DNA of 63,976 bases, the filler included, from Limisphaerales bacterium (GTDB lineage: Bacteria; Verrucomicrobiota; Verrucomicrobiia; Limisphaerales; SIBE01), in assembly GCA_044225505.1 (NCBI GenBank). It is 8 parts of 8 records of this genome, joined end to end, with 100 filler letters (N's around TTAATTAATTAA, not from the genome) between each part and the next. Parts side by side here need not be neighbours in the genome. Positions count along the whole stretch, not along the records: positions 57,195 to 63,976 come from JBGAIN010000283.1; 7 more parts are not named here. One strand, 5' to 3'. Every line of letters starts with the position of its first letter. Position 1 is the stretch's first letter. A model generated the notes under the pieces. That model did no database searches, was not told where the DNA came from, and worked only from the letters and a program-made list of their open reading frames with translations. Shown here one piece after another: positions 49,452 to 63,976 of the stretch. The position numbers were made by a program, and so were the translations under genes.

Positions 49452-49688
49452 GCGATTTTCCTTCAAGGTGCGGATCGTTGGCGTAGGCTTCTGCGCGTGA
49501 GGTTGTTGTTGTCAGAGCAGCGTTGCCCGTCAATCAGAGGCCCTCGCGGCCGCTGGCGTCGCCGCGTAACTCGAAAATCGCTGTACCGGGATTTTTCGAC
49601 TGCAATAACAGGGTATCGTTACTACAATCCGAGCACCGGAAGGTGGCTATCGAGAGACCCGATTGGCGAGAGGGGTGGGTGGAACCTT
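49452..49688 (+). other. Leader + Rhs core-tip module, copy 1 (5' end cut by contig edge, 3' end by IS3)
   Basis: GTG 49497 ORF ...[37 protein letters not shown]; homologous to 63199-63394. Confidence 0.8.
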
Positions 49689-49689
49689 T

Positions 49690-50406
49690 GGTCCCGTCCT
49701 GGGATAGATTGACACTCGTTATGGTAAAACGAGTCGGACAAAACAGTGGGATTCGCTACAGTGAAGCGTTCAAGATGGCGGTGGTACGTGAGCTGGAAGA
49801 GAAAGATTTGCCCTTTGAGGAGATGCGGCGAAAGTATGGGATTAAAGGTGCGGTGACGGTGCAGAAGTGGGTTTGGAAATATGGCAATGGCAGTCGTAGA
49901 ATGAGGATACGAGTGGAAAAGCCAGAAGAGATCAACCAATTGAAGAAGCTTAAAGAACGGGTCAAAGCCTTGGAATCGCTCTTGGCCGACACGAATCTGG
50001 AGCTAGCTTTGGAGCGGCAGTATACCCGAATGGCCTGTAAGCGAGCGGGGATCGAGGACGTGGTAGAGTTTAAAAAAAAGGGGACTGGGAAGCCGCCCAC
50101 GGAGCCATAGAGCAAGACGGGGAGTTACCCGGGGTTAACGTGGCCAGGTTATGTCGGAAGTTGGCCATGAGCCGGCAGAACTATTATGCGCGGCGTCGAC
50201 AACGGCAGCGTCGAGCCATGGATGGAGAGCTGGTGGCCGCTTTGGTGCAGCGAGAGCGTCGACTACAGCCGCGCTTAGGTACCCGCAAGGTCTACCACAT
50301 CCTCAAACCTGAGCTGGAGGAGGCTGGGATTGAACTGGGGCGCGACCGAATGTTTGAGGAGTTGAGGAAACGAGAGTTGTTGCTCGAGCCGATGGCGGCG
50401 GAATAA
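49690..50406 (+). mobile_element. Truncated IS3-family element: IRL-like 49690-49715, orfA 49721-50110, -1 frameshift site, orfB truncated before the DDE domain
   Basis: YSEAFKMAVV..HTH; A-AAA-AAG at 50074-50080 puts orfA in frame with LCRKLAMSRQNYY...PRLGTRKV...GRDRMF. Confidence 0.85.
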
Positions 50407-60996: not shown

Positions 60997-63017
60997 AACT
61001 TCCAATGAACTCAGGCGCACTTCGTGCGCGAACCGTTTGCATCGCGGCCCTCTGCTTTTGCCTGGGTGCCCGCGCGGATGAACCAGGTCTTCGGCTGGTT
61101 TCCCCTGAAGATGGCGCCGTCTTCAAGCAGGGAGAACCGATCCTCTTGCAGGCCGAGCCGCGCGGAACTCAAGCGGGCGCGATTGAAAAAGTCGAATTCG
61201 TCAGCCGCTCGGTGATCGGAGAGGCGACCAACGCGCCATTTGCATCGTCGTGGACGGCGGTTCCTCCCGGGATCCATAGTATCTCGGTCCGCGCCAGAAC
61301 AGCCGCTGGGCTGGTGGAGTCTTGGAAAAGCACCATCGCGGTCTTGCCTCAGCCCAATGAAGTGGGAGCAGTGCACGTCGACGGGAACTACGGTGGCGCC
61401 GGCAGCGACGGCAGCGTCAAGGCGCCCTATCGCCGGATTCAGGAAGCGGTTGATAACGCGGTCAGCGGCGCCACCATCAAGGTGGCGGCCGGAGACTATC
61501 GCGAAGCCGTTGTCATCCGGGATAAGGATGTGCGCCTGATCGGGGGTTACACAGGCGCTTCCGCAGCGGTTTATTCGCAGGGCGGCAGTGGAGATTTTGC
61601 GAGTCGCACGGTCCGTTCCACCCGGGTGCTGGGCGAGGGCGCCGACCAGGTGATCGAGGTCGACTTCAATGGGACCACCCGATGGAGCATCGTTGATGGC
61701 CTCACCATTTCCGGCGGCAAACGGGGCGTTCAGGCTCATACCTTTGAGGATCCCACCGGGAAGTATTTTCTTTTGATGAACAGCGCCATCACCGGCAATG
61801 CCAGCGCGACGGATTCGGCCGGCGGAGTCTCCATTAACCAGGTGAGTACGGGAGTCCTCAGCAACTCGATCGCCGGCAATACCGCCCTGGGTTACGCCGG
61901 ACTGTTCGTCAATGGCACCGCGCTGACGGTGGGATTGATCAAAGGCAACAGCGTTGAAAACAACATTTCCACCGAGGATTACAGCCATGCCGCGGGAATC
62001 GCGTTTCGCGGGGCAGGCACCACCGGTTCAATCGTTCGCAACGTGGTGCGAGGGAATCGTGCTTTTTATGGCGCAGGGATTTTCGTGGATGGCGATGTGG
62101 CGTCCAATTTTACGCGACTCTCCTTCAACACCGTGACTCACAACAAAGGGATTTTTGGGACCGGCGAGTTTGTCGATGGCGGGGCCACCGCGATCATTGA
62201 GCACGACCTCATTGCCTGGAATGAGACGCTGAATCGCGAGTTTGGCGGAGCCTTCGGGGTCGATTCCGGTCCTGCCACCCACGCGTCGCTGATCAACTGC
62301 ACCGTTGCTTTCAATGCCAGTTACAACGACGAATTCTCGGGGGGGAACGGGTTGGGCATTACGGAAGATAACTCCGACCAAGTCACGGTGGAGGTGAAGA
62401 ATTGCATCTTTTGGCGCAACTCGATGGTCCCCGGCGGCAAAGAGATCAATGCTCCGGCCAATGGCGTGTTGCAGATCGCGTATTCCGACGTCGATCAACT
62501 TCTCGAAGCCAATGCGCACATTCAGCTGGGCACGGGCGTTTTCCGTGCGGACCCTCTCTTTGCCGATCCGCAACTGGAGGATTTCCATTTGCGATCGAAA
62601 GCAGGTCGTTGGAACCCCGGCGGCGCGAATGGGCAAGGGGCCTGGGTCTCGGATGATGCCGACAGCCCATGCCTCGATATTGGCGATCCCGCGTCTGTTT
62701 TCTCGCTGGAACCTACGCCCAATGGTGGCCGAATCAACCTCGGCGCATGGGGCAACACGATTGAAGCCAGCAAGAGCGGAGAAAGCCCTGGCTTTGCCTT
62801 CACCAATCTTCGTCTCCTTTCCAGCGGCGTCCGCGAGATCTCTGCATCCGGCCCGCCTGGCCGTTTTCAATTGCAAGCCGCCAGTGCGGTGGGTTCCTTG
62901 CAGACGACCTGGATAGATTTAGATGTCCTGACCAACACCGCGGGCGCGGTCGTGTATCGAGACAATTCCCCGTCGTCATCCCCTCACCGGTTTTATCGAG
63001 CGCGCTTGCTGCCTTAG
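60993..63017 (+). CDS. Secreted Ig-like + DUF1565/beta-helix protein
   Basis: GSVKAPYRRIQEAV, VAAGDY, NCIFW.N, SPCLDIGDP...GRINLGAWG. Confidence 0.75.
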   Translation: MKLPMNSGALRARTVCIAALCFCLGARADEPGLRLVSPEDGAVFKQGEPILLQAEPRGTQAGAIEKVEFVSRSVIGEATNAPFASSWTAVPPGIHSISVRARTAAGLVESWKSTIAVLPQPNEVGAVHVDGNYGGAGSDGSVKAPYRRIQEAVDNAVSGATIKVAAGDYREAVVIRDKDVRLIGGYTGASAAVYSQGGSGDFASRTVRSTRVLGEGADQVIEVDFNGTTRWSIVDGLTISGGKRGVQAHTFEDPTGKYFLLMNSAITGNASATDSAGGVSINQVSTGVLSNSIAGNTALGYAGLFVNGTALTVGLIKGNSVENNISTEDYSHAAGIAFRGAGTTGSIVRNVVRGNRAFYGAGIFVDGDVASNFTRLSFNTVTHNKGIFGTGEFVDGGATAIIEHDLIAWNETLNREFGGAFGVDSGPATHASLINCTVAFNASYNDEFSGGNGLGITEDNSDQVTVEVKNCIFWRNSMVPGGKEINAPANGVLQIAYSDVDQLLEANAHIQLGTGVFRADPLFADPQLEDFHLRSKAGRWNPGGANGQGAWVSDDADSPCLDIGDPASVFSLEPTPNGGRINLGAWGNTIEASKSGESPGFAFTNLRLLSSGVREISASGPPGRFQLQAASAVGSLQTTWIDLDVLTNTAGAVVYRDNSPSSSPHRFYRARLLP

Positions 63018-63198
63018 CTCGCGATCCGTCCAGCTCAAGCTCCCAGCGACACTTTGAATCCGTAGATCGGAGTGTCGCACCAGTTCGCCCTTTTGGTCTG
63101 CCTGGCCCCGGGACGGGCTCCACGAAACTAGCCCAGGGTAAGGTCGCCTCGCAAAGCCCCCACCTTGGGTCAGACCCTCCTGGAACGTCCTTCTGATC

Positions 63199-63524
63199 TC
63201 AGGATAGCCACCGTCCGGTGGAGGGGTTGTAATAGCGGTGGCCTGTTATTGCATCTGGAAAAACCCGGTACAGTGATATTCGTTTCGCGCGACGGCGGCG
63301 AGAACGTTCGATCGGCGGACAACACGGCGATCCCATCGAGAGCTTCACGGCTCTATCGCCTACGCCAACGACCCCCAGCTCGAAGGAAAATCGCCGATCA
63401 TTGCGTTGACCGTCTCTGCGATACAGCGCCTTTTGAGCCCTTAAAATCAAGCGCAAGGTCGAATCTTAACGTTAACGAAATCATAGGCCTCTGAGCAGCA
63501 TTTACTTGTCGTGGTGACACCAGA
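63199..63524 (-). other. IS-end-like motif + promoter-like box + leader + Rhs core-tip module, copy 2
   Basis: TCTGGTGTCACC-ACGA-CAAGT at 63524-63504; TGGCGTAGG at 63367-63359; GTG 63348 ORF ...[25 protein letters not shown]. Confidence 0.75.
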
Positions 63525-63819
63525 ACTCAAACGCGCTGTGCCCATCATCAGGAAGCGGCGATTCATGGCCAGGGCCTGTAATCACAAGCCATTCTCAAGT
63601 ACCTGCTGCCGCTCGTGGCCACCGGCAACGCTTTATATCGTCCGCTGAGGAAACCGCACCCCCAAGTTTCCACGCCTTTCCAAGAACAGCCGCTGCTTCG
63701 CCTCAAGCGTCAACATCTACATTGCATTCTGCGAAACTGACCCTGCGATGCGAGATGATCGGCGCCAGAGTCTCGCGGAGGGGCTCTCCGCTTTGACCGT
63801 TTCCGCGTGTTCCGCGGTT

Positions 63820-63976
63820 CTATCGCTCGGCATTGGATCGGCCCCGCTCGGCCACAATGCGCTCGCATTGGACCTTGGGATAATGACCAAAGTTCACCAG
63901 TAAGCCGAGCTTGAGCTGCGTTGCTTTCAGGTAATTCTGGACTTGAGCCCGGTGCTCGTCGGTCAACTCGGTGACG
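63820..63976 (-). CDS. GxxExxY protein, C-terminal part (absent from the ORF track)
   Basis: VTELTDEHRAQVQNYLKATQLKLGLLVNFGHYPKVQCERIV...*. Confidence 0.85.
   Translation of the reverse strand, partial: VTELTDEHRAQVQNYLKATQLKLGLLVNFGHYPKVQCERIVAERGRSNAER

Follow-up and report, generated by a model that had tools for sequence, protein, structure and literature searches.

The segment described here lies on the minus strand of a window of 63,976 bases, the whole stretch of DNA analysed, which is a chain of contigs with spacers of N between them from the genome of a Limisphaerales bacterium (assembly G000; 9.04 Mb, 342 contigs, 95% complete). It carries a short leader with its own start codon, fused in frame to the conserved core that precedes the toxin tip of Rhs proteins. 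We refer to this segment as copy A and to a second one in the window as copy B; their features are collected in Table 1. A reading made earlier from the sequence of the window (the sequence-only reading) had listed a series of strings common to the two copies, and pairwise alignment bears this out: both contain GCGATTTTCCTTC, TCGTTGGCGTAGGC, a GTG, CTGTACCGGG and TGCAATAACAGG, both then switch abruptly to G[HY] and the Rhs core motif, and neither has tyrosine–aspartate (YD) repeats upstream, all as had been stated. At the switch lies a junction site with two arms of ten nucleotides. In copy A its centre consists of the G-H codons and its right arm of the R-Y-Y codons plus one base, and seven of the ten arm positions form Watson–Crick pairs. 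The frame of copy A stops right behind GRWLS (GRWLS-TGA) and the toxin is absent; copy A is an empty remnant. Copy B begins at base 1 of its contig, and its 5' flank has therefore been cut by the assembly. Its tip is broken off after ...GGWNL, where an element of the IS3 type (IS, insertion sequence) begins; an A-run frameshift motif is visible in this element, and the match of its orfA to PF01527 (E = 8.5e-5, 23.1 bits) just misses the cut-off of 24.1 bits.

Table 1. Features of the two leader copies in the window
Feature	Position	Strand	Remarks
Copy A	63199-63524	minus	Near the end of contig C77 of this genome (G000)
M1 repeat module, ~130 nt	63403..63529	minus	Directly upstream of the copy A leader
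Motif 1 (GCGATTTTCCTTCGAGCT)	63377..63394	minus	The 'IS-end-like motif' of the sequence-only reading
TAGGCG hexamer, possible -10 element	63357..63362	minus	8 nt before the start codon; role putative
Leader reading frame	63238..63348	minus	GTG + 36 codons to G-H, in frame with the Rhs tip
IR2 inverted repeat	63257..63282	minus	Type GAAAATC...GGGTTTTTC; weak in copy A
Junction site	63228..63253	minus	Left arm TGCAATAACA, centre GGCCAC, right arm CGCTATTACA
Rhs core-tip remnant, then TGA	63199..63237	minus	Read directly from the sequence
40-nt flank	63159..63198	minus	Common to the C81 remnant
Copy B	49452-49688	plus	Starts at base 1 of contig C64
Copy B motif 1	49452..49464	plus	Very start of C64
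Copy B leader frame	49497..49616	plus	GTG start, 40 codons, G-Y end
Copy B junction site	49601..49626	plus	TGCAATAACA / GGGTAT / CGTTACTACA; 7/10 arm pairs
Copy B Rhs core-tip fragment	49617..49712	plus	TIGR03696 positions 33-60, E = 3.2e-9
IS3-type transposase orfA interrupting the copy B tip	49721..50110	plus	PF01527 HTH_Tnp_1; foreign to the unit

The sequence-only reading had only these two copies before it. A census of the assembly by BLASTN with copies A and B and by a six-frame motif scan raises the number to 12 leader-bearing junctions, far beyond chance. There are 16 sites with an RYY-type core motif in G000, two of which are of another type and lie in giant proteins. The other 14 read GHRYYN[PA]STGRW, with a leader upstream in 11 and a true YD-repeat sequence upstream in three; the twelfth leader is a partial one at C81:5062-5193. 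The leaders are found on contigs C140, C174, C81, C77 and C64, and the unit, which had been described as dispersed, is also arrayed: there are two arrays (C140 and C174) and four dispersed loci. Fusion to the Rhs core at a fixed point was likewise predicted correctly, as indicated by matches to TIGR03696 that start at position 33 or 34 in eight of the nine leader-bearing open reading frames (ORFs) scanned; the one exception is copy A, whose shortness precludes a match to TIGR03696 or to NCBIfam.

Both arrays run on one strand and have the same plan, in which a short YD-containing gene (the head gene) and an immunity ORF are followed by units of leader, tip, toxin and immunity ORF, with four to five units in each. 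The C140 array opens with a 539-residue head gene (RHS repeat, TIGR03696 positions 1-76, Ntox44) and an immunity-type ORF, followed by units of leader, tip, toxin and small ORF, and the C174 array with a 396-residue head gene and four leader units, one of which has Ntox16. The head-gene N-terminus precedes an Rhs core of ~200 residues in both of these genes, and the other Rhs cores of G000 are just 27-35% identical. The orphan modules retain positions 33/34-76 of TIGR03696, compared with 1-76 in the head genes. The toxin ORFs behind the core are 140-250 residues long, and each is followed or overlapped by a small ORF. The expectation that different toxins and small immunity-type ORFs would follow the junctions was thus borne out, with Ntox16 in one orphan and the others lacking a Pfam match; the Pfam scan recognized Ntox44 (head gene) and Ntox16 (orphan) and gave no family for most tips or for any immunity ORF. 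Four leader copies sit at loci without a head gene. C81 has one complete unit, C81:5062 and copy A are remnants, and copy B is cut. The remnant at C81:5062-5193 consists of the last ~55 nt of the leader, the junction site, a RFYNSSTGRWLS-TGA remnant and a 40-nt flank, and is 89% identical to copy A over 132 nt. The array unit at C140 4301-4846 has no leader, starts at the end of the preceding immunity ORF and has a core reduced to ...GWLSRDP; its 5' part has apparently been lost.

The leaders are 165-210 nt long in total and stand ahead of N-terminally truncated Rhs-type tips. They are not ordinary Rhs core, for BLASTN and MAFFT find no similarity to the sequence upstream of GH in the YD-bearing genes. 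A start codon is present at the aligned position in nine of the 11 copies (GTG in eight, ATG in one), and in a tenth a TTG lies two codons upstream. The distances from start to junction in the 11 leaders are 105, 108, 111 or 114 nt, all multiples of three, although slippage in a CGN-rich stretch may account for part of this; the gaps upstream of the start codon are of 1 or 2 nt. Over the 55 pairs formed by the 11 copies, the ratio of nonsynonymous to synonymous differences (pN/pS) is 0.78 in the leader, with 549, 555 and 559 differences at the three codon positions, compared with a ratio of 0.13 and 74, 30 and 189 differences in the adjoining core. The ratio and the even spread over codon positions therefore indicate that there is no protein-level constraint on the leader, and the idea that the leader might be a protein under purifying selection fails on the same grounds. 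For the pair of copies A and B, pS is 0.77 and pN 0.09 in the core, and pS 0.31 and pN 0.32 in the leader, so that the substitution pattern noticed from these two copies stands in its main part (a core that differs mostly synonymously and a leader free of protein constraint) but the remark that wobble bases stay fixed was overstated. The reading frame matters, then, and the residues do not, which is the pattern that the sequence-only reading had sensed. We do note that the leader peptide is consistently basic and that L28, F32 and G38 are invariant. No Pfam or NCBIfam family covers the leader in scans of these databases, and Rfam gave no match with E <= 1 over window positions 62900-63976. A structured RNA over the whole leader was considered and rejected: the RNAalifold energy is -12.3 kcal/mol with a covariation term of -0.42, which was reached by 77 of 500 shuffles.

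Alignment of the G000 leaders with the regions behind a recombinase gene, rec2, in related DNA (described below) indicates three elements at the nucleotide level, namely motif 1, the inverted repeat IR2 and the junction. Motif 1 reads TTTTCCTTTTAGC(C/T)GC in the other G000 leaders. It had been likened to the end of an insertion sequence because of the string GCGATTTTCCTTC; this string is a part of the conserved TTTTCCTTTTAGC motif, which has neither an inverted copy nor a transposase, and the likeness is not supported. IR2 occurs in all lineages and stays paired although its sequence varies (AAAAACCC..GGGTTTTT, AGACCC..GGGTCT and AAAAACCGG..CCGGTTTTT), and its DNA-fold z-scores range from -5.1 to +1.2 with a mean of -1.26. 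Small insertions and deletions in IR2 shift the local frame (KKPLYPGF versus QNPCTGRF), which is restored afterwards, and the IR2 nucleotides are kept between lineages despite the differing frame. A hexamer resembling TAGGCT (with the variants TAGGCT, TAGACT and TAGGTT) is found 7-10 nt before the start codon in both G000 and metagenome leaders. The sequence-only reading had spoken of a promoter-like box; scans do not reach a sigma-70 consensus here, and no sigma-70 promoter or intrinsic terminator was called at any leader of the window copy or the two arrays, but the hexamer does recur across lineages and may yet be part of a promoter.

The third element coincides with the switch itself. The last 26 nt of leader and junction form a 10-6-10 inverted repeat centred on the G-[H/Y/F] codons, in which the 10 nt ahead of these codons and the 10 nt from the R-Y-Y codons onward are reverse complements. 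The consensus is TGYARTAWCW-GGYYWC-MGWTAYTACA, and the sequence GTTRRRY is absent from it. We assembled 21 leader-bearing junctions, 12 from G000 and nine from metagenome loci. Between five and nine of the ten arm positions form Watson–Crick pairs in these junctions, with at least seven in 19 of the 21, compared with two or three of ten in the five control junctions that have YD repeats upstream. In an ungapped alignment 81% of the cells are paired, compared with 72.6% in shuffles (a value reached in 0 of 500), the covariation score is 0.224 compared with 0.119 (0 of 500), and there are nine further pair types compared with 6.4 (1 of 500); when the partners are slid by one to three columns, 22-48% are paired. 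A two-sided change is seen from GTAGTATCT/AGATATTAC to GTAGAATCT/AGATTCTAC, and tips with R-F-Y (AGA TTC TAC) have GTAGAATCT in place of GTAGTATCT as their left arm. The G000 sites have CGT as Arg codon; the left arm TGCAATAACA of one leader type fits the CGTTATTACA arm at eight of ten positions. The other left arm of G000, TGTAGTATCT, is the left arm of the metagenome loci L031 and L034, yet it is paired with the host-type CGT-TAT-TAC arm; such hybrids of TGTAGTATCT and a CGT arm are expected if the centre was the point at which a foreign left arm became attached to a host right arm. The centre shrinks to 4 nt in several metagenome copies, where pairing continues into the hexamer.

The same hexamer marks the boundary between leader-bearing and YD-bearing genes. 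Their homology begins at GGCCAC, with DNA that is near-identical onward, and the three YD-containing genes have the GGCCAC hexamer and the right arm as in the cassettes, the left arm of the YD-type site being GGTTTACTAC with the hexamer unchanged. The sequence-only reading had offered TGCAATAACA as a possible crossover point. This was nearly right: TGCAATAACA is the left arm, and the crossover would more likely fall in the hexamer GGCCAC that follows it.

To find relatives, a leader-peptide profile (a hidden Markov model) built from the 11 G000 leaders was searched against 1.84 billion representative proteins, and 12 proteins were retrieved at E <= 0.001, ten of them at E <= 3.4e-10. Two of these ten are from G000 and eight (P0003-P0010) are not encoded there; the eight come from four different sources and each is a singleton cluster. 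All eight have the leader, and in seven an intact core of the RYYNPS type follows. Five of the seven continue into mutually different tips, P0003 stops shortly after the core, and the tip of P0004 is 47% identical to the C81 toxin. In P0006 the C-terminus of a tyrosine recombinase passes without a break into the leader; P0008 has this arrangement too, in a frameshifted reading, with a frameshifted core and no tip.

Retrieval of DNA based on P0006 yielded 61 metagenome loci, many of which share a gene order of a DnaG-like primase of ~910 residues (CHC2 zinc finger, Toprim) followed by two recombinase genes, rec1 and rec2. Full-length matches of both recombinases to the XerC and XerD models score 205-232 bits, which falls short of the equivalog cut-offs, so that the two are best described as Xer-like, not XerC or XerD proper; their scores against the integron-integrase model TIGR02249 are 73-91 bits, where the cut-off is 265. 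Each of the two has recognizable catalytic H-x-x-R, LLGH and Y motifs, and their genes stand in tandem in L030, L031, L038, L044 and L051. The rec2 motif was found in 45 loci, 29 of which extend for at least 400 nt downstream, and eight of these 29 have a YD-less Rhs-type tip within 1000 nt; L030 and L031 (381 nt downstream) add two tip-bearing loci. The R-Y-Y codons lie 153-190 nt behind the rec2 stop codon in seven loci, and in each of these an in-frame ATG opens a leader of 38-50 codons. Motif 1 lies directly behind the rec2 stop codon in L028, L029, L031, L034, L036 and L044, and is also present in L037, L042, L058/L062, L096 and the genome G320. The remaining rec2 loci carry other cargo. 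A linked recombinase had been suggested as something to look for, and in related DNA the leader does adjoin a pair of tyrosine recombinase genes.

Other searches for relatives returned less. A search for leader DNA in 61 genomes, G000 included, found outside G000 just the R-Y-Y part in G025, where all 11 R-Y-Y copies have YD repeats upstream, and a 26-nt match in G038 that is probably due to chance. Exact-pattern scans for the leader in genome and metagenome contigs gave no matches; the profile search later found relatives, so these patterns were too strict. A word-index protein search with leader residues 30-75 returned the query's own protein alone. Among 400 other genomes of the same phylum, a close homologue of rec2 was found in two: in G356 a PIN-like gene lies behind it, and in G095 motif 1 and a degenerate tip remnant. 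A search with the site pattern in 400 same-phylum genomes gave a real leader–tip junction at a contig start in G320 and a match in G264 that is probably chance. Viral contigs searched with rec2 gave one distant match only (30% identity).

Several loci preserve what look like traces of movement. In L028 the order is rec2, leader, toxin, small ORF and a second leader. This second copy is 85% identical over 210 nt from the region of the rec2 stop codon, lies behind the first cassette, and loses its homology 18 nt past the junction, with unrelated DNA beyond. In C81 a leader and site are followed by a toxin, a membrane ORF and a Fic protein, then by the last ~55 nt of a leader (IR2 and left arm), a site, a 12-codon remnant and the 40-nt flank; in copy A this remnant and flank come immediately after the leader, which gives it the look of an empty site. 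The leader at C140:3705 keeps ~40 nt of the 3' end of rec2 before motif 1 (E values of 2e-5 and 1.6e-4 in a small database), and a ParE pair stands ahead of the leader at C140:38, as it does in L074. In L038 (8711 nt) there is a leader on both sides of the primase–rec1–rec2 block and a terminal redundancy of 144 nt with one insertion or deletion, which implies a circle of ~8.6 kb or a tandem arrangement. L038 carries one toxin unit, and its sister contig L037 has another tip behind the same leader. We also compared the Logan contigs of the public runs X1, X2, X6 and X10 with C140:1-10000. For the unique parts of the C140 array, runs belonging to three studies give high-identity coverage, and the Logan contigs stop at the leader and core repeats (for example records 18, 22 and 23 of X2). 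The joints seen there have sides of 22-50 nt or letters that are unknown between them and may stem from other copies or strains; one contig of X6 departs from the 3705-type tip exactly at the R codon and runs on in a 7031-type leader, a joint that would agree with reassortment at the junction but, as a single case, is ambiguous.

In our view, the least complicated account of the data described above, and one that they favour moderately, is that the junction is the crossover site of the rec1/rec2 pair and that the leader doubles as an expression module. On the side of expression, the upstream motif, the TAGGCT-like hexamer and the in-frame GTG or ATG would give a cage-less tip its own translation start, and the immunity gene coupled to the tip would share it, the peptide of 35-40 residues not itself being conserved. 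On the side of recombination, the last ~60 nt (IR2 and the 10-6-10 repeat) may be the core site of the XerC/D-like tyrosine recombinase pair that is encoded immediately upstream of the leader in related DNA, on an element with a DnaG-type primase. Crossing over within the hexamer would bring a tip/immunity unit into frame with either a leader or a YD-repeat gene that has an identical hexamer; repetition of such joins could build the arrays and the dispersed copies, and the leader would keep displaced tips translated. Two versions can be envisaged. In one, small cassettes move in an integron-like manner, which would fit the 3' partial leader of C81 and the second leader copy of L028. In the other, the whole primase–recombinase element integrates at the R-Y-Y site and its backbone is later deleted, which would fit the piece of rec2 left at C140:3705 as well as the hybrid sites and L038. 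The fuller proposal, that an element with a primase and an XerC/D-like pair uses the G-H/R-Y-Y codons for in-frame exchange of tips, with the displaced tip parked behind the leader, is one that we put forward only tentatively. The anatomy of the unit, its copy number, the recombinase linkage in relatives, the covarying inverted repeat and the kept frame are matters of observation; the action of the recombinases on the site, the way in which recombination runs, what it produces, and the promoter are inferred.

Several points weigh against this interpretation. The 21 junction sequences are not independent of one another, and kinship can inflate the covariation test. The G000 sites are weaker palindromes (six to eight of ten pairs; DNA-fold z-scores of about 0 to -2.3) than the metagenome sites and for that reason may be fossils or relics. 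Only about one third of the adequate loci have a tip, so that the recombinase family is not dedicated to Rhs. Neither the primase nor rec1 or rec2 has a close homologue in the G000 assembly (best identity 33%), and none of its 11 PF00589 matches lies on C140, C174, C81, C77 or C64. No excised circle or recombinant junction is demonstrated in the assembled contigs of the public runs that were compared. Lastly, the junction position, which is fixed within G000, differs in L051, L037/L038 and L042, where a related leader joins a longer Rhs fragment elsewhere. These joins fall at ...ENRL... or ...YLWGLDLSG... and not at R-Y-Y, and that of L042 has a short inverted repeat, AGTCTG-AGAA-CAGACT; the three cases suggest a second class of junction.

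The most serious competitor, which we nevertheless regard as rather unlikely, is an ordinary Rhs orphan array shaped by homologous recombination alone, with the leader as a passenger 5' flank that was duplicated together with the cassettes, and with the recombinases of other organisms adjacent only because mobile elements often carry, at their ends, toxin/immunity pairs as cargo or addiction modules. Published orphan arrays share this layout, a main gene followed by CT/immunity modules (CT, C-terminal toxin region) that keep the core, as far as the relevant part of that paper goes (PMC3150448). The leader diverges at about the neutral rate, G000 has no close homologue of the recombinases, two-thirds of the related recombinase loci hold other cargo, and L038 may be a small circular replicon with the toxin pair as an addiction module. 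Such recombination between leader copies could moreover give rise to these arrays and to an 'empty' copy, which also counts against a dedicated system. What homologous recombination leaves unexplained is that the left arm tracks the R-Y-Y codons across unrelated leader peptides, that the nucleotides of motif 1 and IR2 are conserved under a shifting frame, and that the homology of leader-bearing and YD-bearing genes starts exactly at the hexamer. Furthermore, classical orphans have no start codon according to the section on orphans in the same paper (PMC3150448), whereas one is present here in ten of 11 copies.

An action of the inverted repeats in RNA, with hairpins that tune the translation, stability or processing of a toxin/immunity transcript of the toxin–antitoxin (TA) type, seems to us improbable. 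It would agree with the position of the repeats inside a leader that is presumably transcribed and translated, with pairing maintained through two-sided changes, and with the Salmonella orphan Rhs tips, which are internally expressed and act as type II TA modules in the account available to us (PMC7043789). The whole-leader fold is nevertheless unsupported, as the shuffles mentioned above indicate, there is no Rfam match, and the recombinase adjacency, the 3' partial leader of C81 and the copy boundaries at the hairpin centre would go unexplained. It is very doubtful that the leader encodes a functional Arg-rich N-terminal signal or adaptor for export or for loading onto a secretion system: the kept frame and start codon, the consistently basic composition and the few recurring residues would suit such a peptide, but the pN/pS ratio, the lack of codon-position bias and the lack of a Pfam or NCBIfam family would not, and the peptides of related lineages cannot be aligned and read IR2 in another frame. 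Scarcely credible, finally, is the view of the 5' motif as the end of an IS or a miniature inverted-repeat transposable element (MITE) that inserted by chance beside Rhs tips. Dispersed repeats are indeed many in the neighbourhood (M1, a 60-nt repeat, the IS3-type element and an ORF for a group II intron reverse transcriptase), but besides the missing inverted partner and transposase the motif keeps one orientation throughout and a constant spacing to the start codon and to the junction, and in relatives it follows the stop codon of the recombinase.

Comparison of the leader–tip unit with known systems indicates that it belongs to no single one of them. Koskiniemi and co-workers are said to have treated Rhs/CdiA orphan CT–immunity arrays in 2014. 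Such arrays ('silent cassettes') are described by Poole et al. (2011), whose classical orphans, in the passages that concern us, lack a start codon (PMC3150448). The likeness lies in polymorphic tip and immunity modules downstream of a gene with an identical conserved core, with a piece of core for each module. Here, unlike in those arrays, every module has a non-Rhs leader, with its own start codon in ten of 11; ~43 core residues are kept and copies are also dispersed singly; the head genes have 396-539 residues and there is no full-length YD-repeat cage gene; and the boundary is a covarying inverted repeat, with the leader behind recombinase genes in relatives. For Salmonella, Starsta et al. 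(2020) describe, in the portion of the article at hand, main and orphan Rhs-CT toxins that are internally expressed as type II TA modules, with a promoter P2 and a CTG start that lie 89 nt ahead of the PxxxxDPxGL motif, within conserved sequence coding for Rhs (PMC7043789). Both systems have cage-less tips with immunity genes and, if the elements in the leader are what they appear to be, an expression element just upstream of the tip, but the start is in the conserved Rhs core there and in a foreign leader that replaces the core here.

The rAID-1 clusters resemble the unit in other respects. As given in the extracts used here (Ross et al., 10.1101/471110; PMC12247911), they consist of a 5' Xer-like tyrosine recombinase and co-oriented short genes with intergenic motifs 'reminiscent of integrons'; their criteria include a 5' XerD-like recombinase at least 44% identical to BF9343_RS08045, at least two downstream genes in one orientation, conserved motifs between these genes and a G+C content of 41% or less in them, skewed against the recombinase (10.1101/471110). 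The same extracts state that the mechanism by which the clusters assemble is unknown and report close recombinase homologues only from Bacteroidales (10.1101/471110; PMC12247911). XerC/D genes that adjoin polyimmunity loci never interrupted by toxin cassettes are mentioned in the pertinent part of Zhang et al. (2012; PMC3482391). Like rAID-1, the present system has co-oriented genes and repeated motifs behind a recombinase (L028) and a content linked to interbacterial toxins; the co-orientation extends to the G000 arrays of four to five units, yet the recombinase is absent from those contigs. Unlike rAID-1, which has immunity genes only, every unit here begins with a toxin tip, there are two recombinases instead of one, and the repeats are fused in frame to coding sequence instead of being intergenic.

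Integrons comprise an IntI integrase, an attI site and arrays of attC sites, which have R''/L''-L'/R' boxes and a GTTRRRY core at the 3' ends of the cassettes. In both cases a recombinase gene is followed by a site that collects promoter-less cassettes one way, with structured and variable inverted repeats at the boundaries, but here there are two recombinases that score below the IntI cut-off (73-91 versus 265 bits) and no GTTRRRY, and the site is embedded in a reading frame, where an insertion, unlike in integrons, produces a fusion protein. Xer core sites have two inverted arms of ~10-11 bp around a centre of 6-8 bp, and the pdif modules of Acinetobacter plasmids are Xer-dependent. The Xer-type pair (in relatives only), the ~10-bp inverted arms and the 6-bp centre give the junction the look of such a site, although here the recombinases are encoded by the element and are not the pair of the host, and the site is unrelated to dif, stands in direct orientation and lies inside toxin codons. 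Shufflons and hsdS-type switches invert DNA between inverted sites in one locus and so swap C-terminal segments. They too have a tyrosine recombinase site in coding sequence that joins alternative C-termini to a constant 5' part; in the present case, unlike in these switches, the swapped segments bring their own immunity gene, and the sites, being direct repeats, imply that DNA is excised and integrated, not inverted as in a shufflon. In those parts of the literature joining Rhs, tyrosine recombinase, toxin and cassette that were consulted, no system of this kind was found.

Tip replacement in Rhs and other polymorphic toxins is generally ascribed to homologous recombination with silent cassettes, and we know of no dedicated enzyme or site for Rhs tip exchange. 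What is defined here is a candidate site of 26 bp that lies exactly at the boundary of tip swapping, covaries with toxin codons and adjoins the genes of an Xer-like recombinase pair in several unrelated samples. If the proposed exchange takes place, each event would give the recipient gene a new tip and immunity gene, its repetition would build arrays, and the displaced tip and its immunity gene would stay expressed through the leader. The diversification of polymorphic toxins would then gain a dedicated recombinase machinery and the biogenesis of rAID arrays a concrete model, orphan arrays with their own start codons would be explained, mobile elements would have a new route by which to hijack and re-arm a host weapon, and a natural system for in-frame exchange of C-terminal cassettes would be at hand. 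Should the proposal be false, the unit would still be an unusual type of orphan, with cage-less, self-starting Rhs tips that are probably toxin–antitoxin-like.

The YD-containing head genes deserve a separate remark. They are located at C140 8016-9635, C174 5294-6484 and C79 6613-7847, and all start with MPRQLDLEYPEAAYHAMNR, which resembles the N-terminus of an IS200/RayT-type transposase, fused here to the Rhs core. The C79 copy has a frameshift immediately before GHRYYNP. In the leader of the type-M head genes (MPRQLDLEY...RRFGVSVIA) there is no clear motif 1 and no junction palindrome. An ORF on the plus strand of C140 (11023-12000), presumably a group II intron reverse transcriptase/maturase, lies ~1.4 kb upstream of the C140 head gene on the opposite strand. 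Giant ORFs are seen at C139:15103 and C311:82158, with ~5,000 and ~10,900 codons before the motif, a core reading RYYDPxLGRFIS and ~1,750 codons after it.

Several dispersed repeats accompany the leaders. M1 is found upstream of five of the 12 leaders; it also occurs without Rhs sequence on C149:38625-38747 and C65:13030-13119, and shorter pieces are present on C245, C197, C150 and C254. It has internal hairpin-like sequence, its lone copies are intergenic and lie ~400 nt upstream of unrelated genes, and it is partly in tandem on C149; M1 could be a promoter-bearing or MITE-like element. A repeat of ~60 nt (GAATGGCTTGTGATTACAGG...) at window positions 63535-63594 on the minus strand has ~20 copies in the genome with 93-98% identity. 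In several copies the homology reaches ~200 nt or more upstream, towards the region of a PD-(D/E)XK gene, and a fragment of such a gene (PF13366) lies beside the repeat in the window at 63820-63975. Another dispersed repeat, whose translation contains ...VAQIIVRNFCRTPDMRICGTDP..., is found at C140 669-1336 and 2005-2672 and at C81 ~1640-1720; it flanks Rhs-repeat fragments on C140 and truncates M1 on C81, and in the public sequencing runs the summed contig depth of these stretches is much above that of their neighbours.

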